From Deinococcales bacterium (GTDB lineage: Bacteria > Deinococcota > Deinococci > Deinococcales > JAAFIG01): 64,000 nucleotides of DNA. Position numbers and translations under genes: made by a program. Of the stretch, positions 1-64,000 are shown piece after piece (the stretch's first letter is position 1; every line of letters begins with the position of its first letter). The notes beneath the pieces were generated by a model. That model worked only from the letters and a program-made list of their open reading frames with translations. It did no database searches and was not told the DNA's origin. Location: contig JANNVX010000088.1 of assembly GCA_031414595.1 (NCBI GenBank), positions 29,787 through 93,786 on the forward strand. The letters are read 5' to 3'.

Positions 1-365
1 TTGGCTCTGGCTCGAGCCGTGAACATGCAGTTTGGGCATTGACCGATTTTGGTTTCAAAACGATTCTTGCCCCTGCATATGCCGATATTTTTTACAACAA
101 CAGCCTAAAAAACGGCTTGCTGCCCGTGGTATTGCCCGAAGATGTTATCTCGAGTATTTGGAATCTGCTCGAACAAGCCCCTGACTCGCAAATTACTGTG
201 GATTTACCAAGTCAAACGGTAACACTGCCAGACGGCTCGAGTCATGGTTTTCAGATTGACCCATTTAGAAAAATATGTTTATTAGATGGCGTGGATGACC
301 TTGGGTATTTGCTGAATAAATCGGATGTGATTGGTGCATTTGAAGCTCAAGCAAAAGTGTACTAG
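1..365 (+). CDS. leuD: 3-isopropylmalate dehydratase small subunit, C-terminal part (5' end outside window)
   Basis: Frame is open from base 3: GSGSSREHAVWALTDFGFK..., which contains the LeuD GSSREHA motif. Stop at 363-365. Confidence 0.9.
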   Translation, partial: GSGSSREHAVWALTDFGFKTILAPAYADIFYNNSLKNGLLPVVLPEDVISSIWNLLEQAPDSQITVDLPSQTVTLPDGSSHGFQIDPFRKICLLDGVDDLGYLLNKSDVIGAFEAQAKVY

Positions 366-374
366 AATGACCAT

Positions 375-581
375 ATGAGCGAATTTGCGTTTCAAAAAAC
401 CAATCTGCAAGTGGTCTCGAGTTTTGCCGAAGCCGACGAAGCTGACCGTTTGTATTGGTGGAGTCGAAGTCCAGAGGAGCGCCTTCGTGCTTTACAACAT
501 CTTCGGGAGTTGAATTATGGTGATCTCGCTCGATCAAAACTTCAAAGAGTTTTTGAGTTTATTAGAATTTCAGAACGTTGA
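375..581 (+). CDS. small hypothetical protein, possible antitoxin-like partner of the downstream nucleotidyltransferase-fold protein
   Basis: 68-aa ORF directly upstream of and overlapping the next gene. No motif recognised. Confidence 0.4.
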   Translation: MSEFAFQKTNLQVVSSFAEADEADRLYWWSRSPEERLRALQHLRELNYGDLARSKLQRVFEFIRISER

Positions 582-963
582 ATACTTGTTGATTGGTGGT
601 TATGCCGTCAATTGGCATGGGTATCATCGTGCAACCAATGACATGGATATTTTTGTTTCTGCATCTACGGAAAATGCGGCTCGAGTTACCGCAGTCCTGC
701 ATGAATTTGGTTTTCTCGAGGTCAATTCGCAGATGATGTCAACTCCAAAAAGCATGGTTCGTATGGGTGTGCCTCCAACAAAATTAGAGGTGACGAATTT
801 TATTGATGGTGTGACTTTCGAGGAATGCTTTGAAAAACGGCTGCGGGTCACATTTGATGGCATCACTTTCAATCTGATTTCCCTGCCAGATTTGCGCCGC
901 AATAAAAAAGCCAGTGGCAGACTCAAAGACTTAGCCGACCTCGAGAATTTACCGGAAGGATAA
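517..963 (+). CDS. nucleotidyltransferase-fold protein (toxin-antitoxin-associated NTase-like)
   Basis: N-terminal VEYLLIGGYAVNWHGYHRATNDMDIFV pattern (GG...T.D.D) is typical of small minimal nucleotidyltransferases. Confidence 0.6.
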   Translation: MVISLDQNFKEFLSLLEFQNVEYLLIGGYAVNWHGYHRATNDMDIFVSASTENAARVTAVLHEFGFLEVNSQMMSTPKSMVRMGVPPTKLEVTNFIDGVTFEECFEKRLRVTFDGITFNLISLPDLRRNKKASGRLKDLADLENLPEG

Positions 964-965
964 TA

Positions 966-3902: not shown

Positions 3903-5003
3903 ATGAACGAGTCCTTAGAAATTATTCTCGCCGAGTTTGCCCAACTCGAAGCGAGCCTAGCTGACCCGGTGCTTTTAGCCGACGGCGCGGCATACGCTCG
4001 AGCGCAACGCAAATACGGCGAGATGCAGGAGTTAGCCCGATTAAGTCGGTTGTTACTCGAGACCAAGCAGCGCCTTTCCGAAGCACTGGGGTTGTTGTCT
4101 GACCCCGACCTTGGAGAATTGGCAGCCCTAGACGTGCTTGAGTGCGAAGAAAAAATCCCATTGCTCGAGTTGGAGTTTGAAGAACTGACCCTACCTAAAG
4201 ACAGCGCTGATGCTCGAGATGTGATTCTTGAAATTCGGGCGGGTACGGGCGGCGCAGAAGCGGGGTTATTTGCCGCCGATGTTTTTAGGATGTATCAGCG
4301 TTATTGTGAAACCCTGCATTTTAAGCTGGAAGTAATTGACACCAACGAATCCGACATTGGTGGGTTTGCCAAAGTCACCGCCGAGATTCGTGGGGCTGGG
4401 GCATTTGGGATTTTTAAGTTTGAATCTGGGGTGCATCGGGTGCAACGGATTCCAAGTACCGAGTCGGCTGGGCGGATTCACACCAGTACCGCCACAATTG
4501 CGGTGCTGCCCGAAGCCGAGGATGTGGATGTGCAACTCAGTCCTGCCGATTACCGCATTGATGTTTACCGCGCTGGTGGACATGGTGGGCAGGGAGTCAA
4601 CACCACCGATAGTGCGGTGCGAATTGTCTACCGCGAAGGCACACCCGACGAGATTACCGTGACTTGCCAAGATGGTCGTAGCCAGTTAAAAAATCGCGAT
4701 AAAGCCTTGACCGTGCTGCGCTCGAGACTGTTTGAGCGTGAACGCGAACGCACTGCCCGCGAACGCTCCGAAGCCCGTTCGAGCCTGATTGGTTCAGGCG
4801 AGCGTTCCGAAAAAATCCGCACTTATAATTATCCGCAAAATCGTGTCACCGACCACCGTCTTGAAGGTGAAGCCAAGAATTATCCGCTTGTCACCATCAT
4901 CGAAGGTGGCATGACCGAATTAACAACTGCCTTACGAGCTTTAGAAAAAGAAACCCTGATTGCGGAGCGAATCGAAAAGCAAATGCAGAAGGTTGCTGCG
5001 TAA
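3903..5003 (+). CDS. prfA: peptide chain release factor 1
   Basis: GGQ motif (GGHGGQGVNTTDSAVR) and RF1-type P-x-T tripeptide (RIPSTES). 366 aa. Confidence 0.95.
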   Translation: MNESLEIILAEFAQLEASLADPVLLADGAAYARAQRKYGEMQELARLSRLLLETKQRLSEALGLLSDPDLGELAALDVLECEEKIPLLELEFEELTLPKDSADARDVILEIRAGTGGAEAGLFAADVFRMYQRYCETLHFKLEVIDTNESDIGGFAKVTAEIRGAGAFGIFKFESGVHRVQRIPSTESAGRIHTSTATIAVLPEAEDVDVQLSPADYRIDVYRAGGHGGQGVNTTDSAVRIVYREGTPDEITVTCQDGRSQLKNRDKALTVLRSRLFERERERTARERSEARSSLIGSGERSEKIRTYNYPQNRVTDHRLEGEAKNYPLVTIIEGGMTELTTALRALEKETLIAERIEKQMQKVAA

Positions 5004-7759: not shown

Positions 7760-7777
7760 CCGATTCTCGAGAATCGG
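7760..7777. repeat. 18-bp perfect palindrome CCGATTCTCGAGAATCGG centred on CTCGAG
   Basis: Read directly. Lies in the spacer between the divergent trxB-like and merR-family genes. Confidence 0.8.
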
Positions 7778-9801: not shown

Positions 9802-9829
9802 GCAGCCCTCGAGATTAGAGGGCTGTTTT
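9802..9829 (+). terminator. rho-independent terminator between convergent genes
   Basis: GCAGCCCTC-gagatta-GAGGGCTG followed by TTTTATTTTTT. Confidence 0.6.
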
Positions 9830-11381
9830 ATTTTTTCAAAAATCGCTTGGTCAGGCGTTCAACTTCAGGCACTCGAAAAATCACACATAAAAGAATGTAA
9901 ACTGCCCCCCCTATCCCCCCAGCCACCACGCAATGCAGTAAACCATTGACCGCGCCCCTCGAGTACGGCAAGAGGTTTGATACAGTAACCGCCACAAAAT
10001 AAGTCGCTACGGCTGCCGTACCAACCTTTAGGGTATGCCCAACCAATTTTTTCCACGGCAACGTGATTTGTTTGTGCAGCACTGCCACATAAACCCCAAC
10101 CATCAGCCAGCCAGCAATGGCGGTTGCATAATTCATGGTCACAAAACCAAAACGTGCCAGTAACACATACAAACCTGTGTTGAGTAAAAATGCCACAGTC
10201 GAAATAATCACGGCTTCTCGAGTACGTTCCCTTGCATAAAATGCTCTGGTCAAAAGCTGCACCAAGCCCCACGGCGCAATTGCCAAGGCAAAGGTCGGCA
10301 ACAGTGCCACAGTCGGGTTAAACACCAAGTCTGGGATTTTCTTGGTTATCTCGAGCAGCAGACTGGTAATGCTTGGCGAGAGCGCCCATAAAAGCGCCGA
10401 AACACCAGCCGAAAAGAATAGCACCAGTTTTGAGTATTGCATGACTGTATCGCGGAAAAGTTGCCAATTTTGATTGCTGGCATACTCGGATAAACGCGGA
10501 TAAGCGGCGGTAGCAGGGGAGACCGCAAATAAACCTTGCATGGTTAAAAAAATAATTTCGGCATTGCGAAACCCCGTTAAAGTCCCCTCACCAAAACTGG
10601 TCAGCAAACCAATCAAAATAACACTTAGGAATTGGCGGGTACTGGTGGTAAAGGCAAAGGGTGCCATTAACCCGAGGGCTTTGGATAAACCCGAATGCCA
10701 CTTAAAACTTGGCAAACTGAGCAGTCCAGATTTTCGTAAACTCGGTAACTGCACCAATAACTGGGCAAAGCCACCAAAACTGGTAAATAAACCAAGCCAG
10801 AGCGCTTGATTGGGGAACAACACAAACCCTAAAATCGTGACCAAATTAAAAGCTAACGGCGCAAAAGCGGTTGCGCCAAATTTTTCTTCGGCATTTAGTA
10901 AACCCATCACCAGTGCCGATAAGGAAATACCCATTAAAAAAGGCATACACAACCTCGCCAAATAGACAGTTAAATCCTTATCTAGTTGATTATTTTGCGC
11001 TCCAGAAAAAATACTCGAGACCTGTAGTAAATCTACAATTTGCGGTGCAAAAATAATCCCCAAGCCAACAATCAGGGCATTGACCCCCAGCAGTACCCCC
11101 AGTAAACTCGAGGCAAAGGCTTTGCGCTCCGACGGCAAAAGCCGCTTATAGACTGGAATAATGCTGTTAGACAACGCGCCTTCGGCAAGCAGTTCTCTGA
11201 ACAAATTCGGGATGGTACTGGCGACATTATAGGCATCAAGTAACTTGGCATCGAAATTACTATTCAGTAATGCTTGACGCAACAATCCCAATACCCGACT
11301 CGAGAGTGTACCGCTCATTACGGTCAAAATATTGCGGCTCGAGCTTTTGCGAACTGGGGCGATTTCGGTTTCGGTTTCCAC
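9828..11381 (-). CDS. murJ: lipid II flippase MurJ (MviN)
   Basis: 517-aa polytopic protein. N-terminal SRVLGLLRQALLNSNFDA and overall MurJ/MviN architecture. Confidence 0.9.
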   Translation of the reverse strand: METETEIAPVRKSSSRNILTVMSGTLSSRVLGLLRQALLNSNFDAKLLDAYNVASTIPNLFRELLAEGALSNSIIPVYKRLLPSERKAFASSLLGVLLGVNALIVGLGIIFAPQIVDLLQVSSIFSGAQNNQLDKDLTVYLARLCMPFLMGISLSALVMGLLNAEEKFGATAFAPLAFNLVTILGFVLFPNQALWLGLFTSFGGFAQLLVQLPSLRKSGLLSLPSFKWHSGLSKALGLMAPFAFTTSTRQFLSVILIGLLTSFGEGTLTGFRNAEIIFLTMQGLFAVSPATAAYPRLSEYASNQNWQLFRDTVMQYSKLVLFFSAGVSALLWALSPSITSLLLEITKKIPDLVFNPTVALLPTFALAIAPWGLVQLLTRAFYARERTREAVIISTVAFLLNTGLYVLLARFGFVTMNYATAIAGWLMVGVYVAVLHKQITLPWKKLVGHTLKVGTAAVATYFVAVTVSNLLPYSRGAVNGLLHCVVAGGIGGAVYILLCVIFRVPEVERLTKRFLKK

Positions 11382-17377: not shown

Positions 17378-17405
17378 CTGCCCTTAAAGCGAGGGCAGTT
17401 TTTTT
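17378..17405 (+). terminator. rho-independent terminator
   Basis: CTGCCCT-taaagcg-AGGGCAG followed by TTTTTTT. Confidence 0.7.
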
Positions 17406-18297
17406 ATAGCGCATCTCGAGCCAACTGCCGAATGTAGAACGCCTCGAGTGAACGCCTCGCATTTGCATTAGCTCGAGCATTCACCAGCAGCACAGCCATT
17501 CCAAACGGACGGGTTGAAATAAATGCCTGCTCGAGTTTTTCAAGTGGCACAGATTCTGCCCAAGGCTCGAGGTACGCCCTGATAAACAATGGCTCAAGTT
17601 CTCGGGTGTTAGAAAATGGACTCCAGTGGTGTGGTTTGGAATTGCCCATAATCCAGTGCAGGAAACGCTCGAGGTCAACGAAAGGATGGGTGATGAGGGC
17701 ATCCGACCAATCAATGATGGTACTGGGTGCAATCACATTCATCGGGTGAAAATCGCCATGCGCCAGCGCAAGAGGCAGTAAGTCAAGTCCCTCGAGTCGA
17801 ATCTTATTTAAGTTCTGCAAGGCTTGAAACGCGTTTTCGTCGGTGCTGGATTCAAGAATAGCCTTGGCTTTTATAACCGCTTTACTTGGCTCGAGAATTT
17901 CACAACCAGCCTCGAGAATAACTTGGTGCTGGGTTAAAGTACAAATCTGCAATTCGGACATGGCACGTAAAGCCATAAGCCAATCTTTGAGGTTTGAATC
18001 ACGTATCAAATGAGTTTCGCCAGCGCTTTTGGTCAGCAACCAACCCAAATTTGGTTCAGTCGCCAGCACCATTGGTGTATGGCTCGAGAATTGTTGCAGC
18101 CGAAGTGTGATTTTTATTTCTCGAGTCAGCACGGGTGGCACTGCCTTAAAATGCAGTTTTTGACCCTCGAGAAAGGTAATGCCCCAAAAGGCACTTGCTC
18201 CAGAATGCACCGTCTCGAGTTTACCGATTTTTGGGAACTGAGTCTCGAGCCAAGTTTGTGCAGACTCAAGCCAATCGGGTTCTAACCATGGATTCAT
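17404..18297 (-). CDS. aminoglycoside-phosphotransferase-fold kinase (APH/choline-kinase family)
   Basis: HGDFHPMNV catalytic loop and IDWSDALITHPFVDLERF motif. Confidence 0.75.
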   Translation of the reverse strand: MNPWLEPDWLESAQTWLETQFPKIGKLETVHSGASAFWGITFLEGQKLHFKAVPPVLTREIKITLRLQQFSSHTPMVLATEPNLGWLLTKSAGETHLIRDSNLKDWLMALRAMSELQICTLTQHQVILEAGCEILEPSKAVIKAKAILESSTDENAFQALQNLNKIRLEGLDLLPLALAHGDFHPMNVIAPSTIIDWSDALITHPFVDLERFLHWIMGNSKPHHWSPFSNTRELEPLFIRAYLEPWAESVPLEKLEQAFISTRPFGMAVLLVNARANANARRSLEAFYIRQLARDAL

Positions 18298-25948: not shown

Positions 25949-26023
<75 letters not shown>

Positions 26024-26093
26024 AAAGAAAGCCCCGTGATGAACGGGGTTATTTTATTTACCACTTTAGTTTTGTGTTGTGGGGTTTCTCGAG

Positions 26094-26115
26094 CGTGTGC
26101 AACGTCGTGTGCAAC
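26094..26115 (+). repeat. two copies of CGTGTGCAAC near attL (candidate integrase arm-type sites)
   Basis: CGTGTGCAAC at 26094-26103 and 26106-26115. The same word occurs in tandem at 38036-38057. Confidence 0.5.
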
Positions 26116-26120
26116 GCGCC

Positions 26121-27470
26121 TCAATTAAGGGGCGAAACTCCAACGGCTAGAGGCTTAACAGGATTCGGAAAGAAGTCAATCACAAATTCTCGCTTCTCGG
26201 ACTCAAGGACATGGCGATACACTTTGTAAGTGATTGCAATGTCTGCATGTCCAAGTATTTTACTGACCACCTCAACCGGTACGCCTTTACGAAGCATCAG
26301 AGTACCCGCCGTGTGGCGTAAATCATGGGGTGTGATATGCGGTAGAGACTGTCCTTCTTTTATTAGGGCTTCAATCCCTAAGCGTTGTATTGCTTTGAAT
26401 ATCCTATGACCTCGAGAAACACCACGCTTGTCAACTTCGGTGTAATACTCCCAACTACTCCAATGTGTTAATTCTTTTAGAGTGCGTTGTAGATTATCAG
26501 GATGAGTCCATTGACCTGTTTGAGTGGCAAAGACTGCACCTGTATTTGTCCAAGCATCTTCGGCTGTTCTGCGTTCCTCGAGTTGCTGCTTTTGGTGCTG
26601 CTCGAGTGCTGCCCTAAGACTGGCTGGTATCAGAATGTCACGGCTCGAGTGGCTGGTCTTGGTCAGTTCGTCACGGGTTGGTTTACCTTTGGTCACAGTT
26701 GCTGTGTGCCGTATTCGGATTAGGCTTTTCTCGAGGTCAATATCCTGCCAGCGTAAACCCATGACTTCGGAGCGCCTAAGCCCAATTGAAAACGCTGTGA
26801 AGACCGCAACCCATAAACGACAAATGCCAGCTTGGTACAAGGCAGTACCCAACTCGTGAAACCTTGCCACTTGGTCAAAGTCCAGAGCAATGTGAGGCTG
26901 TTCTGTGCGTACTTTTTTAATCGTCTTGACCGCTTCGGCTGGTGACACATAAAGAATCTGGTCAGTCACAGCTTCACGCAGTACGGTCTTTAATCGAGTT
27001 CGGACATGGGCAACGGTACGACTTGCACGGAGCTTACCTGTGTTCTCGAGCTTGCCATTCTTGCGCCGCTTGGTGCTGGTATTTGCCAGCTTGGTCAAAG
27101 CCTCTTTGATGTCGAGCGGCTTTAAGTCTTTAAGACGCTTCTTACCAATAAAAGGCAGTATTAAGCCTAGCTCGTGCTGGTAGGTATCTCGAGTGATTTC
27201 ACGAACATCTATTTGCTCGAGCCACCGTTTAACGTACTCGGATAAGGTCACTTGGTCAGAGCTTGCCAGTACGCCGCGTATGTGGTCACTCTTGGCTTGC
27301 GTGAGGGCTTCTTCGGCTTGGGTTTTTGTCTCGGTGATACCACTGGCTAAGGTCTTGCTGTCCGCGTCCCTGAGTTGCCATCTGTACCGGTTGTCTTTGT
27401 ATTTGCTGATTGACCCGCGTCCGTTACCGCGCTTGCCAGTAGTCACAATTTGTTTCTTAGGTCGTGCCAT
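26121..27470 (-). CDS. int: tyrosine-type site-specific integrase
   Basis: C-terminal catalytic region HDLRHTAGTLMLRKGVPVEVVSKILGHADIAITYKVYRHV (R..HxxR..Y). Likely start is the Met at 27470 (MARPKKQ...). Confidence 0.9.
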   Translation of the reverse strand: MARPKKQIVTTGKRGNGRGSISKYKDNRYRWQLRDADSKTLASGITETKTQAEEALTQAKSDHIRGVLASSDQVTLSEYVKRWLEQIDVREITRDTYQHELGLILPFIGKKRLKDLKPLDIKEALTKLANTSTKRRKNGKLENTGKLRASRTVAHVRTRLKTVLREAVTDQILYVSPAEAVKTIKKVRTEQPHIALDFDQVARFHELGTALYQAGICRLWVAVFTAFSIGLRRSEVMGLRWQDIDLEKSLIRIRHTATVTKGKPTRDELTKTSHSSRDILIPASLRAALEQHQKQQLEERRTAEDAWTNTGAVFATQTGQWTHPDNLQRTLKELTHWSSWEYYTEVDKRGVSRGHRIFKAIQRLGIEALIKEGQSLPHITPHDLRHTAGTLMLRKGVPVEVVSKILGHADIAITYKVYRHVLESEKREFVIDFFPNPVKPLAVGVSPLN

Positions 27471-27474
27471 AAGT

Positions 27475-27831
27475 TCAGACTCCCGTCTCGAGGGCTTTAT
27501 CAAAGATGTTTTTTAGGGCTGCTCGAGACCGTTCTAAAACATCACCCTCGAGCTTCCCGTACTGCCCGTGTATTCGGCTTGCATCTACTACGCGAAGCTG
27601 GTCAAGTAAGAGCGTACCGTTTAGTTTTAGACCACCGTCTCCCGCCGCTAGTGGGATGTGAAGCGCTGCCTTTTTCATGACTCGCTTGGTAATGGGGGCG
27701 ATTAGTACCTTTGGAAAAGTAAGGCGTTGCAAACTGCCAAGGTCAAGAATCAGTAGGCATGGTCTACGTCCTTCTTGCTCATGCCCTTGTGGGTCATGCC
27801 TTGGGATGTCTATATCAAGAATCAAGCTCAT
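27475..27831 (-). CDS. MazF/PemK-like endoribonuclease toxin
   Basis: RRPCLLILD, VLIAPITKR, LLLDQLRVVDASRI match conserved MazF/PemK blocks. 4-nt overlap with the upstream HTH gene. Confidence 0.75.
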   Translation of the reverse strand: MSLILDIDIPRHDPQGHEQEGRRPCLLILDLGSLQRLTFPKVLIAPITKRVMKKAALHIPLAAGDGGLKLNGTLLLDQLRVVDASRIHGQYGKLEGDVLERSRAALKNIFDKALETGV

Positions 27832-28238
27832 GCGGTAGCCTCGAGTAATACAATGCCCTGACCTACAATGTACTTGGCTGGTTTAGCGGCTTTGCGGTTT
27901 GCCTCGAGCCATGCGTTTAGTTCTGCCTTGGGGATGTCTTTCTCGAGTTCATCTAAAGCTCTGCCCATATCGGTCATGCTTGCATTGAGAAGGTCACGTT
28001 CTTCGTTATCTTCAAGTGGTTCTTCTATCACCTCGAGAAGGTCATTAGGTGTGACTGGCTGCCCAGTGATGGTCTCGAGCGTAGACATGACTTTATGGAA
28101 AACATCAAACTTCACTCCTTTCGCTCTATTACTCGCCATGTCGTAAACAGTGGGACGCGCTAGTCCTGATTCTTTCCAAAGTTTGTAGGGCGTAATGCCG
28201 TGACTGTCTAAATAGTGCTGTAGTTTCCATTGCAACAT
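27828..28238 (-). CDS. XRE-type HTH protein, candidate antitoxin / island regulator
   Basis: Met at 28238 preceded by GGAGG. LDSHGITPYKLWKESGLARPTVYDMASN helix-turn-helix, acidic C-terminal half. Confidence 0.65.
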   Translation of the reverse strand: MLQWKLQHYLDSHGITPYKLWKESGLARPTVYDMASNRAKGVKFDVFHKVMSTLETITGQPVTPNDLLEVIEEPLEDNEERDLLNASMTDMGRALDELEKDIPKAELNAWLEANRKAAKPAKYIVGQGIVLLEATA

Positions 28239-28333
28239 ATTAAAAACCTCCGTTAGAACTATAGTCCATTTTAGGCAACATGGCAACCAAGAGTTACTTA
28301 CGTTATTTCTAGGTAACATTAGTATGCCTAGAA

Positions 28334-28362
28334 TTGACATATGTAACCTTTAGCGGTATACT
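28334..28362 (+). promoter_or_regulatory. sigma-70-type promoter for the rightward small-ORF operon
   Basis: TTGACA (28334-28339), 17 nt spacer, TATACT (28357-28362). Lies in the divergent region between the HTH/MazF/int genes and orf87. Confidence 0.6.
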
Positions 28363-28437
28363 AATATCACTCAAGACCGCACACCCTGAACAAGTCACGG
28401 TCTCGAGAATCCCAAAAAGTTGTAAGGAGTCCAAACC

Positions 28438-28701
28438 ATGATACACCAAGCCACCCCAAGCACTCGAGTAGAACGCATCACTCACAGAATGCTCGAGAAG
28501 AACGCCCAAGCCTTAGAAGTCGTTTACTCAGACAGCCCATACAATGATGCTCGAGTAGAACGCCGTTTAACCCTCACCCTCAACAATGGAATGCTCACAG
28601 CTACACGCGGCACTGGTCGCACAATAGATAACCTTGAGGAAGTTTTAGAAACCGCGTACCAGAACATCATCTCAGTAACACCAAGGACGGTGAGGGCATG
28701 A
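28438..28701 (+). CDS. hypothetical protein (island)
   Basis: 87-aa ORF with AAGGAG 8 nt upstream. First gene of a translationally coupled set. Confidence 0.45.
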   Translation: MIHQATPSTRVERITHRMLEKNAQALEVVYSDSPYNDARVERRLTLTLNNGMLTATRGTGRTIDNLEEVLETAYQNIISVTPRTVRA

Positions 28702-29033
28702 CCGCCCTCACTTCCCCAAGGACAGTACAAACCCGTCCTCTGGGTCGCACTGTTCTAACTGGTTGCCTCTCGCTATTCATTCCAACTACTGGCACAAAAC
28801 CAGAAGCTCAAGCCAAACTCAAGACCGTACTCAAAACCATCCGCCCAATTCTCAAGCAGTACAGCAACATCAAAGCCCCACGCTTAACCACGCTCGAGGG
28901 ACACCGCATCATCAAAGTAGAATTCTTTGCCATGCCGTGGCGTTTGGTTTGTCGGCTCGAGGATGCACTGATTGCCGTCAGTGGTTGTCAACTTGGCAAG
29001 GTGTACCAACTGCAAAGGATGGTTACAGCATGA
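28698..29033 (+). CDS. hypothetical protein (island)
   Basis: 111-aa ORF. ATGA overlap with the previous gene. Confidence 0.45.
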   Translation: MTALTSPRTVQTRPLGRTVLTGCLSLFIPTTGTKPEAQAKLKTVLKTIRPILKQYSNIKAPRLTTLEGHRIIKVEFFAMPWRLVCRLEDALIAVSGCQLGKVYQLQRMVTA

Positions 29034-29332
29034 ATACCCTTACTTTTAATTGTGATTGCTGTGGTGCAGTCACCCCTGCTATGCCAGTTTTAGGTTTGTC
29101 TTCATTAAATAAGCGCTCAGATTGTCCAAAATGCCTTGCCCATGAATTACTTTACGATGCCGCCTTAAACCATCTCGAAGAAGCCCAAGACCGTTTAATT
29201 CGGGAATGGGTAGCTTACTGGGTTGCTGCTGGTGTCAAAAGAGAATCCCTTCTTGACTCTGACCCACATCTACACAGTTGTGAAGCCGCAGAACGCACCA
29301 TTGAAGCCATTAGAAAAGAGGTAGGGGCATGA
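29030..29332 (+). CDS. hypothetical protein with two Cys pairs (zinc-ribbon-like)
   Basis: ATGA-coupled start at 29030. MNTLTFNCDCCG...CPKC arrangement. Confidence 0.45.
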   Translation: MNTLTFNCDCCGAVTPAMPVLGLSSLNKRSDCPKCLAHELLYDAALNHLEEAQDRLIREWVAYWVAAGVKRESLLDSDPHLHSCEAAERTIEAIRKEVGA

Positions 29333-29595: not shown

Positions 29596-29617
29596 AACTA
29601 CTAAAGAGGATGCAAAC

Positions 29618-29852: not shown

Positions 29853-29866
29853 GTATTTATAAGAGA

Positions 29867-34379: not shown

Positions 34380-36025
34380 GCTTTAACCTTCATTGTCGCT
34401 GCCTCGAGTTCGTACAACCGCTCGAGGGCTGCCGTGTCGCCACCCTTAGCGGCTTTTACCAGACTGGACAATATCAGCCGGTCAGCTTGGCTCGAGGGTC
34501 GCATTGCTAAGAACCGCGTCTCGAGTTCAGGGGTCAGAGTTGCACCTACTCGTTTTGCTGTGGGTTTCGACACTGGCAAAACATAATTATGTCCATCTTT
34601 GATAATTGCACCTTGCTGCTCGAGCAGTTCAAGGGCTGTTTGAATTTCGGTTTGAAATGCACCATGTTCAAAACTCAGTTCACGGTATAAGTTCACTGGG
34701 GTTATCCGGCGCTTTGCTTTGATAACCTCGAGTGCCAAAACCGTCAAATCATTTGATGCAGTTGAATCATTTGATGCAGTGGCTTGTGCATGAAATGATT
34801 CGCTGTCTATAACGCTGTTCTTGGCATTTGATGTAGTGGATTGCATAGCAAGCGTATCCCCTGTACCCCTTGCTCTAACTTCTGACTGCATGAAATCGGC
34901 TTTATGCGTGATTGACGCAGTAACATTTGATGTAGTGCCGACTGCATGAAATGGGAGTGACTGCATCAAATCATCTTGGCTCGAGTCATCGCTTTTTGTG
35001 GGTAAGGCTTTAAGTCTGTACGAAAGTGGCGCACCCTTTCCAATCCCTTTGATGGTCTCGAGCCGATCACCAAAGCCACCAAAAGCACGGCGCATAGCTT
35101 CATCTGCCCATCGCTCTTTGATGTTACCGCCTGATATTGCCACTTCAAGCAATTCTTTACGGCTAAAGGTCTCACCCGCTCGAGCCTCGAGAAAGCGTGT
35201 CACGGCTTTTTCCGCTCTGTCCTGCCCGTTGTTCTCGGAGTTGGGAAGGTCACACCGTTCAACTCTGACCAAGTAAGCAGGGTCTATGTCATCGCCCTCG
35301 AGAACCAAGCGCACACCAAAAGGCTCGAGTCTTTGGGCAAAACTTTGTTTATGGACTTCCCAGCGAAGTGTATTTTGACCATCACATTCTTTTGGGTCAA
35401 CTCGAGACAGGATATGTACCGCTCGAGCCTGTGCGCTCTTGGCAACACTTCCCATAATGCCCCTGTCGCCGTCTTTCTCCCCTGCCATGCGTTTAGGAAT
35501 GTGGTCAGTGATAATCACGGCTGCTTTGGTCTTGGCTGCCAAGTTACGAAGTCCAGCCATCGGTTTCATGGTTTGCTCGAGTCGGTTTATATCGAGTCCG
35601 GGGAACGCACCCATGTACGAATCAATCACGATGACTTGGGTCCCACTCTCCAAGGCGTGTAAGGTCAGGTTCTCGAGGTCGTCAGGGGTCAAACCACCAT
35701 CAGACGGCTCGAGAACCGCAATCTTTGAGATGTCGCCATCTGGGTAAGCGGCTTTGTGTTTCTCGAGCCAGTGGCGTACCGTTCGGGATTCGCCATCAGG
35801 TGCATCAGTATTTACATAGATACTTGAGCCATGCGGCACACGCCAGCCAAGGAACTCACCACCGCGAGGGCGTGACATCTGCCAAAGAAGCCCTGCGAGG
35901 ATCGTAGTTTTGCCAACGCCCTCACGCGCTCCAAAGAATGAAGTAAAGCCAAGCGGGAACACATCAGGTACAACAAAGCGGATGACCTCGAGAGGTGCAG
36001 TTAAATTGACCATCTTCAAAGCCAC
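34376..36025 (-). CDS. RecA/DnaB-like replicative ATPase (AAA_25 / RepA-like) with C-terminal wHTH-like region
   Basis: Walker A GAREGVGKTT, Walker B VIVIDSYM, DnaB-C/RepA-like core. 549 aa. Confidence 0.75.
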   Translation of the reverse strand: MALKMVNLTAPLEVIRFVVPDVFPLGFTSFFGAREGVGKTTILAGLLWQMSRPRGGEFLGWRVPHGSSIYVNTDAPDGESRTVRHWLEKHKAAYPDGDISKIAVLEPSDGGLTPDDLENLTLHALESGTQVIVIDSYMGAFPGLDINRLEQTMKPMAGLRNLAAKTKAAVIITDHIPKRMAGEKDGDRGIMGSVAKSAQARAVHILSRVDPKECDGQNTLRWEVHKQSFAQRLEPFGVRLVLEGDDIDPAYLVRVERCDLPNSENNGQDRAEKAVTRFLEARAGETFSRKELLEVAISGGNIKERWADEAMRRAFGGFGDRLETIKGIGKGAPLSYRLKALPTKSDDSSQDDLMQSLPFHAVGTTSNVTASITHKADFMQSEVRARGTGDTLAMQSTTSNAKNSVIDSESFHAQATASNDSTASNDLTVLALEVIKAKRRITPVNLYRELSFEHGAFQTEIQTALELLEQQGAIIKDGHNYVLPVSKPTAKRVGATLTPELETRFLAMRPSSQADRLILSSLVKAAKGGDTAALERLYELEAATMKVKA

Positions 36026-36028
36026 AAC

Positions 36029-36685
36029 TCACCACCCACCCTTAGAGGCTTTCCAACTTTTACCGCTCGAGCGTTCGGGCTTACTGGGTGCTGGTCTGTC
36101 CTCAAGTTGCCACGGGTTACGAACACCAGAACGCAAACTACTTTGCACCGTGGCGCGTACTCGGTGAGGCTCGAGACCAGAGGATAGTCCAGCGTCCTCG
36201 AGTTGGCTTCTAAAGGCTTCGGGGTCAACATCGTGACCAGATGCCAAGCCACCGACTTTGTACGCGGCTTTGGCAAGTTCGGCTTGTCGTAAACCCTGCC
36301 CACTTGGGAGGCTCGAGACACTAAGGCAGACCTTAGAAACCCAAGACTCGAGACGTGACCGAATATCACGGGCTTGGTACGGTTTAGGACTACTCTCGAG
36401 GTCGCCAGCCCAAAGGTATACCGCTCCGTAATGGCAGATATGCCCAAGTTCAGGAAAGGCAATCACTGCGCCGTAGTCATCACTCGAGCGATACGCGGTT
36501 AGGGCTATGCCATCGGCTAATAAGTCAGGGGTTGCACTCGAGACAGAAAAGCCAGCGCGTTCAAGCTCACAAATTGCGCCGCGTAGTACATCACGGTCAA
36601 AGGTGTGGTGTCGCACGTTGCACCGCCTTTGCAAACTCGAGTGGTGCGTCCTTGACGGCTTCATTTGGCAGTGTGGGTAGGTCAT
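36029..36685 (-). CDS. hypothetical replication-associated protein (primase/Prim-Pol-like position)
   Basis: 218-aa ORF directly upstream of the ATPase, as in P4-like and PICI-like elements. No catalytic motif confidently recognised. Confidence 0.35.
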   Translation of the reverse strand: MTYPHCQMKPSRTHHSSLQRRCNVRHHTFDRDVLRGAICELERAGFSVSSATPDLLADGIALTAYRSSDDYGAVIAFPELGHICHYGAVYLWAGDLESSPKPYQARDIRSRLESWVSKVCLSVSSLPSGQGLRQAELAKAAYKVGGLASGHDVDPEAFRSQLEDAGLSSGLEPHRVRATVQSSLRSGVRNPWQLEDRPAPSKPERSSGKSWKASKGGW

Positions 36686-36793
36686 CCCAGTTTGTAGCCT
36701 GAGTAATTGGCTTTAAGTTTTTGACTCGAGGTGCTACAATTCTGGTATCAGTTTGTGCAGTTCTCGAGTGTCCCGTGTTGCCAGCACGGGACA

Positions 36794-37015
36794 TTATTTT
36801 GCACCTTGCTCGAGGATATTCTTAACAAAAGTTTCAAGTTCTGCTCGAGGAATATACGCACGGTTTCCGATTCGTATTGCTTTAAGTTTTCCTTCTCGCA
36901 CAAGTTTATAGGTGCTATCCCGCCCAATTCCTAAGAACTTTGCTGCTTGGTGGGTGTTCACCATCAATGGTGAATCAATAGGGGTAAGTGTCGCCGCCGT
37001 TTCTGGTAACGTCAT
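36794..37015 (-). CDS. xis: AlpA/excisionase-family HTH DNA-binding protein
   Basis: LMVNTHQAAKFLGIGRDSTYKLVREGKLKAIRIGNRAYIPRAELETF is the typical HTH_17/excisionase pattern. Confidence 0.8.
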   Translation of the reverse strand: MTLPETAATLTPIDSPLMVNTHQAAKFLGIGRDSTYKLVREGKLKAIRIGNRAYIPRAELETFVKNILEQGAK

Positions 37016-37264
37016 AAAGCATCTCCTGATGCCCTCGAGTGCTGCTTTGGTAGGTACGCTCGAGGTATTTTATTTTTCAAGCAAAGCAGAAATCTCTTCT
37101 CTTTGCTTCGCTCAGTACATTACAGGGCATTAGCGAACGAGTCAAGGAATACCATGCTATACAAGCATAGAATCATACTTTCTTGTTCGGAGTTATAGCC
37201 AACGCAACAGAACGCAGCACGATTAACCCGTTACAAGTACCATCATGTAGTACCACACTGTGTG

Positions 37265-37405
37265 ACCAATAACTCAGAAGATAACCCCAGCGCTTTCATT
37301 GTCTAAGACAGTAAATGAACTACATTTTGTGTTCTTTTTGTTCTGAGTTATTGCTAATTGAGTAAAGTGAACTTCGTGTTATCTGGTATGCCAATAACTC
37401 AGAAC
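37265..37405. promoter_or_regulatory. three copies of CAATAACTCAGAA (two direct, one inverted), candidate operators
   Basis: Copies at 37266-37278 (+), 37341-37353 (inverted) and 37392-37404 (+). They lie upstream of the xis-replication operon. Confidence 0.5.
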
Positions 37406-37408
37406 AAG

Positions 37409-37978
37409 TCATACGCTAAAGTCTATAGTTCGGGCTGTCTCAGTTAGTCTTAAGTGGGTAGTACGAGGTTTAACGTTACCTATCCGCTGCCGCTCAAGTA
37501 ATTTGCGAGATTCTAAACGTCTCACAGCATCAGAAATTGCATTAGGGGCATGGTCATCTAGCCCTCGAGCTTTCAAGAATTCTTTACTACTCCAGGGGAT
37601 TCCAAAGCCTTGCAACTCATGACGTTTTCTTGCTGTGCGAGCTTTTTTTTCGATGCTAAGTAAGTATTTCAAGATTTCAAGTTGTAATTTAGAAAGCTGT
37701 GCGTCAGCATATCGAATCCCTCTGCGTACCCGGCACAATCCCCATAATGGTGATGACCCATCATCTGGTATGTACCAGATGTATTTTAGCCCTTCTTCGA
37801 CAGCGTATTCGGCATTGAATGGTCTTGTTTCACCAATAAATCCCCCTAGTTCTTTTGGTACTCCATCGGGGTCATACATTGGGCTTCTCTTGCCTATAGG
37901 GGCTGCTTCTAATACTGGTCGTAACCGTAAAGGAAATATCCCTTTAGAACCATATCCTCGAGACGCACGACCATTCAT
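37409..37978 (-). CDS. hypothetical protein with C-terminal winged-helix (MarR-like) region
   Basis: LSKLQLEILKYLL ... ISDAVRRLESRKLLERQR. Sits at the right end of the island in a CTCGAG-poor, AT-richer stretch. Confidence 0.45.
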   Translation of the reverse strand: MNGRASRGYGSKGIFPLRLRPVLEAAPIGKRSPMYDPDGVPKELGGFIGETRPFNAEYAVEEGLKYIWYIPDDGSSPLWGLCRVRRGIRYADAQLSKLQLEILKYLLSIEKKARTARKRHELQGFGIPWSSKEFLKARGLDDHAPNAISDAVRRLESRKLLERQRIGNVKPRTTHLRLTETARTIDFSV

Positions 37979-38035
37979 ACTATATCTTACTATATGCTCC
38001 TAACAAAATGATGTAGGACGATTCGGAAGGTTTGA

Positions 38036-38057
38036 CCGTGTGCAACCCGTGTGCAAC
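38036..38057 (+). repeat. tandem CCGTGTGCAAC x2 near attR (candidate integrase arm-type sites)
   Basis: Same word as 26094-26115, same orientation. Confidence 0.5.
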
Positions 38058-38170
38058 GGGCAAAGTTTTTTATAGGAAGACTCAGGATGTTGTAGTAGAA
38101 CAGCTTAGAAAAAACACGCCCTAGACAGCACATACAAAACATTGAAGTAAGATGTAGTATAGAGTTTTCG

Positions 38171-38218
38171 TGATTCGTAATCAGTAGGTCGTCGGTTCAA
38201 CTCCGACCATCGGCTCCA
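38171..38218 (+). repeat. attR core (displaced 3' 48 nt of tRNA-Thr)
   Basis: Identical to 25976-26023. Followed by about 59 bp of 88% similar flank. Confidence 0.85.
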
Positions 38219-41605: not shown

Positions 41606-42289
41606 GTGACCAGAATTTTGGTGGTTGATGACGAACCCAGTGTGCGTGATATTGCCCGTGGCTATCTTGAGCGCGAAGGGTTTGTGGTCTCGAGCGCCGA
41701 AACTGGTTCACAAGGCTTACAACAAATCCTAGAAACAGCCCCACATTTGGTGATTCTCGATCTGATGTTGCCAGAAATGGATGGGCTTGAAATTCTAAAA
41801 CGCCTTCGTCCACATAATAAAACACCTGTGCTGTTACTGACGGCTCGAGGTGAAGAATTTGATCGGGTGCTTGGCTTAGAACTAGGCGCAGATGATTACC
41901 TGACCAAACCTTTTAGCCCCCGTGAATTGGTGGCTCGAGTCAAAGCAATTTTGCGTCGAACCGAGACCCAAAGTAGCAGTCAAGCCTTGCAGCACGGCGA
42001 TTTACGCTTAGACCCACAACGGCACGAAGTGTATTTAGCAGATAAACTGGTACACTTGAGCGCCCTCGAGTTTGAATTGCTTTATACTTTACTGGCTCAA
42101 CCGATGCGGGTTTTTAGCCGCAACCAACTGATTGAGGCTGTTTGGGGCGATGATTTCCCCGGTGTAGACCGTGTAGTGGATGTGCATATCTCGAGTCTAC
42201 GGCGCAAACTAGGCGATGACCCTGAACGTCCACGCTACCTTGCGACGGTGCGTGGGGTTGGCTACCGAATGCTCGAGGCTCGAGGATGA
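41606..42289 (+). CDS. OmpR-family response regulator
   Basis: GTG start giving MTRILVVDDEPSVR. Receiver LDLMLPEMDG, KPF. Winged-helix output VHISSLRRKL...VRGVGYR. Confidence 0.9.
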   Translation: MTRILVVDDEPSVRDIARGYLEREGFVVSSAETGSQGLQQILETAPHLVILDLMLPEMDGLEILKRLRPHNKTPVLLLTARGEEFDRVLGLELGADDYLTKPFSPRELVARVKAILRRTETQSSSQALQHGDLRLDPQRHEVYLADKLVHLSALEFELLYTLLAQPMRVFSRNQLIEAVWGDDFPGVDRVVDVHISSLRRKLGDDPERPRYLATVRGVGYRMLEARG

Positions 42290-61055: not shown

Positions 61056-61109
61056 ATAATTCATCTTTGCTGTGCCATAATGCGCTCGAGTTTTTTTGGA
61101 GGTTCGTGA

Positions 61110-62957
61110 ATGCGAAAATTATGGCTAGTTTTATTGTTACTTTTAACACCTGTTGCTTATGCGGCTAAATGCAGCGAAGAAGATGTCAGCATCACCACCG
61201 TTGAAGGCATTGGTACGGTCTATTCCTCGAGTGATTCTTCTAATGAACTCGAGGTGCGGTTTATAGATGCCTGTTTTGAACGCAGTGGTTGGACGCTTCG
61301 AGCGCCGCTTTTGGTTGTCCGTGAAGACCCAGCCGGAGCGCTGGTCAGTGCCGACAACGCCAAAATCGAATCTGAAGGGGCAAATGGCACGGTCAAACGC
61401 TTAACTGCTCGAGGTGAAACCACCAACTTAGAGGGTTTAAGGTTGCGGCTCGAGCAGTCCTATAAAATAGATGGCTTTGCCAGTTCTCGCTACGATGTGG
61501 TGGCAGAACGTGGGCAATTGGTCGGTAAACGCCTAACCTTACAAAACGCGGTTTTTAATAAATTATCAGATGCCGATTTAACCACCGAGCGTTACCAAGC
61601 TGCCAGTGCAGTTTTAGAAGACAACCGTGCCACCTTAAATAAATTAATATTTGGCAGTCCTCAATTTGGTTTATCGGCGCAACTTGGCTCGAGTAATGCA
61701 AACGGGGTGCAACTCAGTGGCGTAAATGGCTTGGTTGGACGCAATAGCGCGGGTTCTGAAATTGGCTTTAGTGCTGACAGTGCCTTAAGGCTCGAGAATG
61801 GGGTTTACCGTCTCGAGAATACAACCCTGAATTTGTTTGGTTTGCCGCTTTTTATTGGGCGGATGGATTACGACCCGCGTTGCCCGTTTGAAGTGCCTTT
61901 TGTATTTGGCATTGCTAGGGGTTTAACCTTTGGCTTAGAAAATCTGCTTTTAACTTGTGATGGCAAAACCCGTGGCACTTTTGCGGTTTATGATTTATTT
62001 GGCAAAGCCAGCACTGCACCCTTTAATAGTGTCACGGCGCTTGGCTTGTCGGTAACGTACACAGATGGTACAAGTTCATACTTTATTGGACAACCTCGAG
62101 CCGCTTCTTTTCGCGCAACTGTACAACACGAGCCTTTAACTGGCTTAACCAGTGCCTTTTCGCTGGATACTGGCGCAAGAATCGAATCGCCATTGGTCAG
62201 TCTTCGCAGTGCCGAAGGACGAATTGGCATGGCATATAATTTTAATCTTCAACCTTTCACCATCCGCCCAAAACTCGAGCTTGGTATAGTCGGCGAAAGC
62301 CTAGGCTTGGTAACTCGAGACTTTCATGGCTTTGTGCGCGGTAATCTAAGCATTAACTTGGCGTATAACCTGGCGGGTTTTACCTTTTCGGGGGCTTGGG
62401 CTGGACGTTTGACCAATTACTTTGGTGACACTTGGAACGGCTTTAATGTTGACTACACCAGCACTTTGGGCATCAGTTATAACTTGCCAAGTCTTGGTAG
62501 TGCTGGTTTAACCTTTACCAACACCGAGCAACCGATCATTCCACCTTTTGCCAGCCATACCTTGACCCCAATCACCACAATGGGGGCAAACCTAAGAATT
62601 GCGCCAGTCATTCAACCGATTGTTTTGGGTTACGCAGGAATTGCTTTTGAAAATCCAACCTTCAATTTTACTTGGCTGTACAACTTACGTCGTTGGACAT
62701 GGGTCAATCAAAGGGTGGATATTGGGTTTACAGTCTCGTTTTATGATGGTTCAACCCCAACCGATCATCTTGGTAATCTGTTCCAAACCCCACTGCTCAG
62801 TCTTTCCCCACGTATCAACCTTGACTCAATCACCAACAAAGGCGGGGCTGGCGCAAACCTGACTTATTTTGGTCTAAGTTTAGCCTACACCCTAGGGTTT
62901 GATGTTGAAATTCCGACAGGTGCGTTTAAGTTTAATTTTGGTTTGCGTTTGCGGTAA
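61110..62957 (+). CDS. outer-membrane beta-barrel protein, LptD-like (tentative)
   Basis: Signal peptide, OstA-like N-terminal region, long alternating beta-strand C-terminal part ending FKFNFGLRLR. Confidence 0.45.
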   Translation: MRKLWLVLLLLLTPVAYAAKCSEEDVSITTVEGIGTVYSSSDSSNELEVRFIDACFERSGWTLRAPLLVVREDPAGALVSADNAKIESEGANGTVKRLTARGETTNLEGLRLRLEQSYKIDGFASSRYDVVAERGQLVGKRLTLQNAVFNKLSDADLTTERYQAASAVLEDNRATLNKLIFGSPQFGLSAQLGSSNANGVQLSGVNGLVGRNSAGSEIGFSADSALRLENGVYRLENTTLNLFGLPLFIGRMDYDPRCPFEVPFVFGIARGLTFGLENLLLTCDGKTRGTFAVYDLFGKASTAPFNSVTALGLSVTYTDGTSSYFIGQPRAASFRATVQHEPLTGLTSAFSLDTGARIESPLVSLRSAEGRIGMAYNFNLQPFTIRPKLELGIVGESLGLVTRDFHGFVRGNLSINLAYNLAGFTFSGAWAGRLTNYFGDTWNGFNVDYTSTLGISYNLPSLGSAGLTFTNTEQPIIPPFASHTLTPITTMGANLRIAPVIQPIVLGYAGIAFENPTFNFTWLYNLRRWTWVNQRVDIGFTVSFYDGSTPTDHLGNLFQTPLLSLSPRINLDSITNKGGAGANLTYFGLSLAYTLGFDVEIPTGAFKFNFGLRLR

Positions 62958-63105
62958 ATCATACCAAGTTGTGTTAATCAGTCGCGTATTTTGACTGATT
63001 AACCGACTAAAAGGAGTGACAAAAGAACCAAATTAACGCATGAACGACAGTTTGACCGTCTTTCTGGTCAAACGAGAGTGATTAAGTTAATTTGGTATCA
63101 GCTAT

Positions 63106-63138
63106 GGGCTATGAACTTTGAGACTCATAGCCCTTTTT
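63106..63138 (+). terminator. rho-independent terminator
   Basis: GGGCTATGA-actttgagac-TCATAGCCC followed by TTTTT. Confidence 0.6.
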
Positions 63139-64000
63139 ACCGCCAAATGTTTAGTGGTGAAGCCGCAATTTTAACCAAGAACCGATACGCTACGTCCAGT
63201 GCAGCCCGAACATCACCAATTTGTACGGCTTCGCTTGGATGATGCGAAATACCACCAGGGGAACGAATAAAAAGCATAGCGGTACGGGTGATTCCAGCCA
63301 GAATCATGGCATCGTGACCCGCGCCAGATGGTAATTCAAAGCGCTTGCGCCCAGAATCCTCTAAAGCATCGCCTAAAAAACCAAGCAGCATTTCATCGCA
63401 GTGGCTTGAGGCTTGCTCGAGTAAAACGGTGTGACTAAATCCAAGGTCGCGTTTTCGGGCGGTGTGCCAAGCAAAATCGAGCAGTTCTGCCACAGCCCGT
63501 TTGCGGGTTGTGTCCTCGAGATGCCGCACATCTAAACTAAAAGTTACCTGTTCTGGAATGACATTTCCCGCGCCGGGTTGAACTTCTAATATGCCCACCG
63601 TAGCCACCAGTCCGGGCGTGAGTTTGGCAAAACGTTCGACCTCGAGAACCACCTGAGCGGCGGCTACCAGCGCATCCTTACGAAGATTCATCGGGGTTGT
63701 TCCAGCATGACCAGCCTTGCCAGTTAGGGTCAGGCTGGCACGGGTCTGCCCAGCAATACCTTGTACCGCGCCAAGGGCTAGACCTTTGGCTTCTAAGACA
63801 GGACCTTGTTCAATGTGCAGTTCTAAATAGCCCAAAAGCGCTCCTGCTCGAGCCGAAGCCATATCAAAGGGGTTTAAGCCAAAGTCAGAAATGGCTTTGG
63901 CAATACTGACTCCGTTTGCGTCTTGTTTCTCCAGAATATCTGGGGTAAGCGTCCCAACCACCGCCCGAGAACCAATAAATGGTAGGGCAAACCGCACCCC
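63137..64000 (-). CDS. allC: allantoate amidohydrolase / N-carbamoyl-L-amino-acid hydrolase (M20 family), C-terminal part; 5' end outside window
   Basis: GKAGHAGTTPMNLRKDA, LPSGAGHDAM and SPGGISHHPSE motifs of the AllC/AmaB family. The ORF is open to the window edge. Confidence 0.8.
   Translation of the reverse strand, partial: GVRFALPFIGSRAVVGTLTPDILEKQDANGVSIAKAISDFGLNPFDMASARAGALLGYLELHIEQGPVLEAKGLALGAVQGIAGQTRASLTLTGKAGHAGTTPMNLRKDALVAAAQVVLEVERFAKLTPGLVATVGILEVQPGAGNVIPEQVTFSLDVRHLEDTTRKRAVAELLDFAWHTARKRDLGFSHTVLLEQASSHCDEMLLGFLGDALEDSGRKRFELPSGAGHDAMILAGITRTAMLFIRSPGGISHHPSEAVQIGDVRAALDVAYRFLVKIAASPLNIWR

Follow-up and report, generated by a model that had tools for sequence, protein, structure and literature searches.

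The hexamer CTCGAG is hyper-abundant in a 64,000-nt stretch of DNA from a Deinococcales bacterium (contig JANNVX010000088.1, positions 29,787 to 93,786; GC content, 47.6%; here called the window), where it behaves as a highly iterated palindrome (HIP) of the kind known from cyanobacteria. Counting over the whole window gives 369 copies, i.e., 5.8 per kb with a mean spacing of 173 bp. This makes CTCGAG the commonest hexamer, about 3-fold ahead of the next independent word (the runner-up non-overlapping hexamer has 86 copies). The word is maintained by a directional force on the DNA itself and not by codons, peptides, or RNA structure, because its density is equal in coding and noncoding DNA, it occupies all three codon phases, and its count in genes far exceeds that after codon shuffling. 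Judged on the window and about 190 kb of relatives' loci, CTCGAG shares the properties of HIPs in the sense of Robinson and Elhai: it is a short palindrome, with an observed/expected (O/E) ratio far above 10, in all frames plus noncoding DNA and at conserved sites.

Base composition alone (order-0 model) predicts 14.1 copies (O/E, 26), and Markov models of order 1 and order 2 predict 7.9 (O/E, 47) and 19.6 (O/E, 19), respectively. Models of order 3 and order 4 give higher expectations (104 and 319 copies) because they already hold the sub-words of CTCGAG itself. Shuffling of synonymous codons within coding sequences (CDS) yielded 34.0 ± 5.4 copies, compared with 327 observed. The sites are evenly distributed along the window (per-kb variance/mean, 1.0). 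The original prediction, made from the letters alone, had put several hundred copies against about 16 expected and had proposed hexamer counts with Markov and codon-shuffle nulls; these leave O/E far above 1, and the enrichment stands. Three of its hand counts were correct (14 copies in 17404-18297, 7 in 58503-60311, and 4 in 42286-43407), while a recount of 1-3200 gives 19 copies rather than 18.

A crude open reading frame (ORF)-based caller placed 73 genes on 87.6% of the window. With these calls, 88% of the sites lie within genes, and the density is 5.8 per kb in coding and 5.5 per kb in noncoding DNA. Since noncoding DNA is lower in GC (44.7%), its sites amount to an O/E of 29. Within CDS, 192 sites read CTC-GAG, 59 read xCT-CGA-Gxx, and 74 read xxC-TCG-AGx, so that the predicted use of all three phases is borne out; every coordinate quoted for it was found as given, including GSGSSREH in frame 3 at the window start and DWLEAD at 1203. 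An excess of this kind might be a by-product of codon usage, codon-pair preference, selection for Leu-Glu, or palindrome avoidance, and indeed 59% of the coding sites are CTC-GAG, and high-GC phage contigs and Thermus are mildly enriched in CTCGAG through codon usage. However, CTC and GAG are minority codons in the window unless they are adjacent in a Leu-Glu context, codon shuffling accounts for 34 of 327 copies, noncoding DNA and phases 1 and 2 are enriched too, and neither Glu-Leu nor the word GAGCTC is in excess (GAGCTC has 0 copies in the window). The noncoding and codon-shuffle results have already refuted a codon or peptide origin, and we give by-product explanations as a group next to no credence.

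The force does more than choose among synonymous codons, to which it had been supposed to be confined. Leu-Glu dipeptides number 315 in the window proteins, compared with 137 expected from amino acid frequencies (2.3-fold), while the reverse dipeptide Glu-Leu is at expectation (134 versus 137; ratio, 1.0); Ser-Ser is also raised (127 versus 76 expected). CTCGAG encodes 193 of the 315 Leu-Glu pairs. Because the surplus of about 178 pairs nearly equals the number of phase-0 sites, we infer that most of these sites arose via amino acid replacement and not via recoding of an existing Leu-Glu. Closer examination of release factor 1 (RF1), whose gene carries five sites, points the same way. At the 15 site positions found in the clade, the clade peptide equals the majority of 134 outgroup RF1s only once, and at least six positions carry clade-specific residues relative to the outgroup consensus: RR, AE, FE/VE, and IN have each become LE, RTR has become RSR, and RKS has become RSS. 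The force makes no distinction between codon phases, between coding and noncoding DNA, or between the chromosome and a resident mobile element (see below), and it is strong enough to replace residues in conserved proteins. The Leu-Glu excess, 2.1- to 2.8-fold, tracks CTCGAG across nine motif-rich sequences, and the ratio is 0.92 to 0.95 in two lineages without CTCGAG excess.

To see how far the excess extends among relatives, homologues of the window's MurJ, encoded by a gene with seven sites, and then their contigs were collected; 13- to 22-kb loci rather than whole genomes were sampled (Table 1). RF1 places the window among uncultured Deinococcales metagenome-assembled genomes, at 99%, 92%, and 66% identity, and the O/E of CTCGAG in their contigs is 22 to 32. 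CTCGAG is the top hexamer, with an O/E of 18 to 35, in L001 to L004, L282 to L286, L288, and L290, all from independent assemblies; motif-rich members include GCA_013298595.1, GCA_965188805.1, GCA_965191865.1, JANNEE01, JAAFJQ01, and the JGI 3300035014 bin. Its density of 4 to 7 per kb is nearly independent of GC content across relatives (45 to 65%). As the motif-rich state spans MurJ identities from 91% to 52%, hyper-abundance of CTCGAG is a trait of a deep, uncultured Deinococcales clade. When metagenomes were scanned for the RF1 locus, no clade members were returned (best match, 50% identical). The possibility named at the outset, that the sites are linker or assembly artefacts, is virtually out of the question: they lie in frame in conserved genes and are orthologous across independent assemblies from four sources (Logan, JGI, ENA, and NCBI), which also excludes a chimera.

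Table 1. CTCGAG, Leu-Glu, and GGCC in the window and in sampled relatives, by MurJ identity
Locus	MurJ identity	GC	CTCGAG	O/E (order 0)	Leu-Glu O/E	GGCC copies
Window	100%	47.6%	5.8/kb	26	2.30	0
L282	91%	46.6%	4.1/kb	20	2.14	0
L283	84%	51.4%	6.1/kb	24	2.24	1
L284	75%	51.8%	6.1/kb	23	2.34	38
L285	72%	44.8%	6.6/kb	35	2.84	1
L286	63%	50.7%	7.0/kb	28	2.26	0
L287	54%	48.2%	0 (4.8 copies expected)	0	0.95	149
L288	52%	64.8%	6.0/kb	18	2.61	16
L290	52%	59.7%	6.4/kb	20	2.74	117
L289 (Deinococcus)	45%	63.5%	0.18/kb	0.5	0.92	256

One relative, L287 (GCA_965191025.1, CBCZNU010000060.1, 1-21575), is entirely free of CTCGAG over its 21.6 kb; the zero stands against 4.8 expected copies and draws its weight from the 130 to 150 copies in motif-rich loci of equal size. 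No replacement palindrome was found in these 21.6 kb. GGCC is in excess there (149 versus 72 expected) and TGGCCA is 6-fold over-represented, so that CTCGAG and GGCC are both in the opposite state to the window. Restriction-site avoidance of the XhoI/PaeR7I type predicts such a deficit, which is seen only in L287, and the window and the clade show the opposite. Outside the clade, the excess is missing from cultured Deinococcus and Thermaceae: Deinococcus has 0.18 copies per kb, and Thermus thermophilus pTT27 and an Oceanithermus plasmid reach at most 2.6 times the order-2 expectation, compared with 19 times in the window. In the first 50,000 nt of T. thermophilus HB8 pTT27 (L291), TCGA is rare, with 49 copies, 45 of them inside CTCGAG, so that in Thermus TCGA persists almost solely in this Leu-Glu codon pair context.

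A comparison of orthologous sites, which the original prediction had proposed for the direction of gain or loss, revealed conservation above that of generic hexamers together with gain and loss of sites. Of 93 window sites traced in orthologous DNA, 65 are kept (generic hexamers, 0.12 to 0.67), and at each divergence level CTCGAG is conserved 2 to 5 times as often as generic hexamers. The MurJ genes of eight motif-rich taxa together have 25 distinct site columns, of which 3 are common to six taxa and reach across the deepest split, and 11 are singletons; several sites reappear 1 to 3 nt away in other taxa. Individual sites thus come and go at a constant density. Furthermore, one-mismatch intermediates are short-lived, since 76% of the pairs in which the site is present in one sequence and absent from the other (about 81% nucleotide identity) show two or more differences, compared with 44% for differing control hexamers.

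Generic mid-GC genomes served as the empirical baseline for mismatch variants. Transversion variants with one mismatch are at or under the baseline, transition variants are at about 1.75 times the baseline, and two-mismatch variants are unchanged; the transition surplus is as expected for a halo of decaying sites. The ratio of perfect to one-mismatch words is 369:162 in the window versus 24:501 in the baseline. The perfect hexamer alone is favored, with all-or-none recognition, and the ratio would correspond, very roughly, to a scaled advantage of about 4 per site, an order-of-magnitude estimate.

CTCGAG is well known as a type II specificity (XhoI/PaeR7I/BsuMI). That a 6-bp palindrome is recognized all or none, and that relatives flip between about 26-fold excess and complete absence, would point to a resident dimeric CTCGAG-specific enzyme, most probably a DNA methyltransferase. 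By analogy with current evidence on HIP1, whose methylated form raises transformation more than 100-fold in Synechococcus PCC 7002 and whose abundance co-varies with DNA-uptake genes, methylated CTCGAG sites may have an advantage whenever conspecific DNA enters by natural transformation, undergoes homologous recombination, or is repaired. Molecular drive, or weak selection at each site, would then raise the frequency of alleles that carry the word until mutational decay balances the gain. We consider the chances about even that a CTCGAG-specific methyltransferase is coupled to biased transformation, recombination, or repair in this way. We are slightly less confident of the broader proposition, that the HIP phenomenon arose independently outside cyanobacteria and that CTCGAG, probably methylated, serves a Deinococcales clade as a dense self-mark that biases these processes and rewrites about 1 to 2% of the proteome.

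Several observations speak against such a methyltransferase-coupled process. The window and the roughly 190 kb of DNA sampled from relatives yielded neither a methyltransferase nor a nuclease specific to CTCGAG, nor any competence gene. No DNA methyltransferase, restriction enzyme, or Vsr came up when every window gene was scanned against Pfam; that the driver is not visible in this window had been anticipated. A density of one site per 170 bp is 5 to 10 times the apparent need of strand discrimination or of known uptake signals. Depletion of near-cognate words, the sink expected of conversion, was tried and rejected: it is seen against a composition null but is gone against the empirical baseline, where O/E is already about 0.6. 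Selection and biased conversion are not separable by the sequence data. In the MurJ tree, L287 is sister to or nested in the motif-rich genomes with bootstraps of 81, 72, and 47 of 200, which bears on whether it lost the motif or never had it.

The turnover and mismatch data bear on a narrower explanation as well, in which biased mismatch repair coupled to methylation acts on its own (Elhai's HIP model or very-short-patch repair): a nickase reads methylated or hemimethylated CTCGAG, and repair at or near the sites is a ratchet by which they are created and restored independently of transformation. It accounts for the palindromic type II-like specificity, the flip of related lineages between excess and total absence, the short life of intermediates, and the predominance of transitions among one-mismatch variants, and Elhai's model was built for such a pattern. 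Very-short-patch repair, however, handles T:G at one position, has about a 2-fold effect in E. coli, and cannot alone drive a change such as RR to LE. In addition, no particular transition variant is depleted, strand discrimination requires about 1 site per kb and not 6, and no Vsr or MutH homologue was found in the sampled DNA, i.e., the window and the relatives' loci. We therefore regard repair on its own as distinctly unlikely.

The behavior of mobile and foreign DNA was informative with respect to acquisition. The window contains a 12.2-kb integrative element at tRNA-Thr(CGT), bounded by exact 45-bp att repeats (Table 2), most of whose remaining ORFs have no Pfam match; relatives of its AAA_25 ATPase were not found in IMG/VR viral contigs. 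The element carries 85 CTCGAG sites (O/E, 31.9, compared with 26.9 and 22.9 in the flanks), and with the noncoding result this matches the expectation that genes, spacers, and the mobile island are all covered. Host-like GC (47.5%), no GGCC, and this O/E of 32 suggest that the island is native to the clade or long resident in it. In the motif-rich locus L284, a segment at about 6000 to 8000 with 37 to 40% GC (flanks, 51 to 58%) has only two sites in 2 kb and ORFs without Pfam match; it looks like recently acquired DNA and could act as an amelioration clock. Since the foreign segment is nearly without sites and the island is saturated with them, CTCGAG is not needed for acquisition; it builds up with residence or marks DNA circulating in the clade.

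These data also touch the view that CTCGAG is purely a DNA-uptake signal, as in Haemophilus (uptake signal sequence, USS) and Neisseria (DNA uptake sequence, DUS), preferred by a competence receptor and spread by molecular drive without methylation. The phylum includes naturally transformable genera, the effect is genome-wide, clade-specific, and strong enough to reshape the proteome, foreign low-GC DNA lacks the motif, and current work proposes that HIP1 serves as an uptake sequence; all of this agrees with an uptake signal. Known signals, however, are non-palindromic, 9 to 12 nt long, and present at about 1 per kb, compared with 6 bp at 6 per kb here, and a 6-mer discriminates self DNA poorly except via density. 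Known signals also have many partly functional one-mismatch copies, a graded recognition at odds with the all-or-none pattern and the transition halo of just 1.75-fold. USS and DUS are often paired in terminators, and CTCGAG is not concentrated in terminator hairpins; a single two-site hairpin (31751-31776) was found. An uptake signal without methylation is, in our view, unlikely, although it deserves to be kept in mind.

The anatomy of the sites revealed no longer element around the hexamer. The best 8-mer, GGCTCGAG, covers 51 of the 369 copies and the best 10-mer covers 15, and 81% of the sites lack any palindromic extension. Repeats of the repetitive extragenic palindromic (REP) or miniature inverted-repeat transposable element (MITE) type, with units of more than 20 nt in mainly intergenic DNA, do not fit a word without long consensus that is 88% genic. 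CTCGAG had been thought to build intergenic hairpins and longer palindromes; the hairpin and the palindrome at 7760-7777 are real, but they are incidental. Only two longer CTCGAG-centered palindromes exist in the window (7760-7777 and 6702-6715), the hairpin is an isolated case rather than the rule, and a role of CTCGAG as the core of such structures was rejected on the unextended majority of sites.

With respect to the flanks, a predicted preference for G...C is real but weak (G at -1 and C at +1 in the window; GGCTCGAGCC is present at 9-18 and 1613-1622 as reported), and the clearer effect is a deficit of the octamer CCTCGAGG, with 3 copies versus about 14 expected from single-flank frequencies. 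Copies of the palindromic octamers in the window are 38 for GCTCGAGC, 15 for TCTCGAGA, 14 for ACTCGAGT, and 3 for CCTCGAGG, and the same ranking, with CCTCGAGG disfavored, is seen in L285 and L286. The deficit is possibly due to avoidance of Shine-Dalgarno-like GAGG or to a second specificity (AbsI-type CCTCGAGG).

Spacing was analyzed over eight loci with 1,180 sites in total. Spacings below 12 bp are strongly depleted (9 versus 75.5 expected), gaps of 384 to 768 bp are mildly depleted (81 versus 105 expected), and the coefficient of variation (CV) of 0.79 to 0.94 indicates slightly more regular spacing than random; no periodicity beyond a weak 3-nt signal was detected. The closest pair of the window, starting at 42272 and 42279, is the 7-nt tandem at the response-regulator/kinase junction that had been pointed out. 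An abundant dimeric nucleoid-organizing, segregation, or regulatory protein that binds CTCGAG and keeps it by ordinary selection would suit a palindromic site of roughly constant density over the GC range, the exclusion of pairs closer than 12 bp, which is compatible with a protein footprint, and the slightly even spacing. It would, however, need about 17,000 exact 6-bp sites per genome at a cost in protein sequence, and we know of no DNA-binding protein with such a requirement. It leaves the complete avoidance in L287 unexplained, and the sites in the window show no preference for promoters or intergenic DNA. A binding protein is thus improbable as the cause.

Other short palindromes are extremely scarce in the window. 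Of the 64 palindromic hexamers, 31 are at zero copies (14 to 21 expected each), and the pooled O/E of all 6-bp palindromes other than CTCGAG is 0.31. GGCC has 0 copies versus 206 expected, GATC has 35 versus 249, and words of the CCWGG, GGWCC, and GRGCYC types are absent. This avoidance suggests a very heavy load of restriction systems, past or present. A tie between the CTCGAG excess and avoidance of GGCC or of palindromes in general was considered and rejected, as L284 and L290 are motif-rich with normal GGCC. GGCC avoidance is a separate, patchier trait among the relatives.

A scan of viral sequences for triple CTCGAG clusters returned 120 loci, mostly of high GC, in which GAGCTC is equally common; it was set aside as reflecting codon usage and ascertainment. 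An order-3 Markov model explains about half of the CTCGAG count in the high-GC viral contigs, and no phage of the 47%-GC clade was recognized among the 120 loci. Two high-GC IMG/VR contigs may nevertheless be truly enriched and belong to a different host lineage: the 8.2 kb of L265 contain 45 copies versus 1.6 expected (order 2) and lack GTCGAC and CCCGGG, and L251 has 44 versus 5.4 expected (order-2 Markov).

The features mentioned above are collected in Table 2. In addition, the window has about 1.4 kb (367-1739) that is extra compared with the close relative L002 (91 to 95% nucleotide identity). This stretch sits between leuD and an alpha-amylase gene, holds an ORF without Pfam match (517-963) and a gene for a Tam-like S-adenosylmethionine methyltransferase (966-1730), and has a normal CTCGAG density.

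Table 2. Coordinates of features in the window
Feature	Position	Strand	Remarks
RF1 gene	3903..5003	+	5 CTCGAG sites; PCRF and RF-1 domains
Palindrome CCGATTCTCGAGAATCGG	7760..7777	.	18 bp; sole long noncoding palindrome centered on CTCGAG
MurJ gene	9828..11381	-	7 CTCGAG sites; marker for the relative series
APH-like phosphotransferase gene	17404..18297	-	densest gene; 14 CTCGAG sites in 894 bp
tRNA-Thr (CGT)	25949..26023	+	CTCGAG-free; 3' 45 nt (25979-26023) = attL
Integrative element at tRNA-Thr(CGT)	26024..38218	.	12.2 kb; bounded by exact 45-bp att repeats
Tyrosine integrase	26121-27503		island gene
MazF/PemK-like toxin	27475-27831		island gene
Hairpin AGCCCTCGAG...CTCGAGGGCT	31751..31776	.	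intergenic; one CTCGAG per arm; DNA fold -12.7 kcal/mol, z -5.4
AAA_25/RepA-like ATPase	34376-36025		island gene
HTH_26 regulator			island gene
attR	38174..38218	+	45-bp direct repeat, identical to the tRNA-Thr 3' end
Closest CTCGAG pair	42272..42284	+	starts 42272 and 42279, 7 nt apart; response-regulator/kinase junction

For three decades HIP1 has gone unexplained and has been regarded as peculiar to cyanobacteria; with a second, denser case in another phylum, comparisons become possible. The gene families that follow CTCGAG abundance across Deinococcota could be matched against those linked to HIP1, and a natural control is available, as the clade spans 45 to 65% GC and a related lineage lacks CTCGAG. 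If the proposed coupling is true, hyper-iterated palindromes would be a general, convergent outcome of a type II-like methyltransferase coupled to DNA exchange, and the motif-rich clade versus the CTCGAG-free L287 would offer a second system for identifying the machinery. The 2.3-fold Leu-Glu excess and the RF1 replacements are among the clearest cases known to us of a DNA signal overriding protein sequence. On the practical side, CTCGAG identifies these organisms and their mobile elements almost perfectly, like a barcode, when metagenomes are binned, and XhoI-type sites would matter when transforming them.

Full-text literature searches turned up neither a description of CTCGAG as hyper-iterated nor any HIP outside cyanobacteria, in line with the original prediction, which had seen a HIP1-like signature without a described CTCGAG equivalent. 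The only genome-scale CTCGAG enrichment that they returned is in unmethylated intergenic regions of the honey bee (PMC3903499). Restriction-free methylation of CTCGAG does exist: Nocardia has orphan CTCGAG methyltransferases, and there the motif clusters only in a noncoding region near dnaA at the origin (Blow et al. 2016, PMC4752239). Such methylation can therefore accompany local enrichment of the motif, whereas in the present case the enrichment extends across the whole window. Very-short-patch repair at CCWGG in E. coli likewise shows that methyltransferase-linked repair can shift oligonucleotide abundance genome-wide, but it concerns one mismatch type at one position, with an effect of about 2-fold compared with 26-fold here and no known effect on the proteome. 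With USS and DUS, CTCGAG shares a genome-wide weak drive per site, effects on proteins, clade specificity, and an equilibrium density; it differs in being a palindromic 6-mer that has to match perfectly and is several times denser.

The closest parallel is HIP1 (GCGATCGC) itself. Both are short GC-rich palindromes that are tens-fold over-represented in all frames and noncoding DNA, conserved among relatives beyond chance, and lineage-wide with exceptional motif-less lineages, and the mechanism of HIP1 has long gone unexplained. CTCGAG has a different sequence of 6 rather than 8 bp, belongs to Deinococcota, and is several times denser than HIP1, which occurs about once per 400 to 3000 bp (300 to 2700 per Mb; Elhai Table 2, PMC4390886). 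It has no GATC core, its one-mismatch variants show no bias toward the outer positions, and no cognate methyltransferase was found in the window and about 190 kb of relatives' loci. Alternate HIPs (GGGATCCC, TCGATCGA, and those based on GrCGyC, rCCGGy, or GCsGC; Elhai 2015) co-occur with cognate methyltransferases, so that motif identity varies by lineage and tracks the resident methyltransferase; all of them are cyanobacterial, and CTCGAG is not among them (PMC4390886). CTCGAG is thus an element of the HIP type whose motif and phylum are both new; it is shorter and denser than HIP1, and it affects the proteome unusually strongly.

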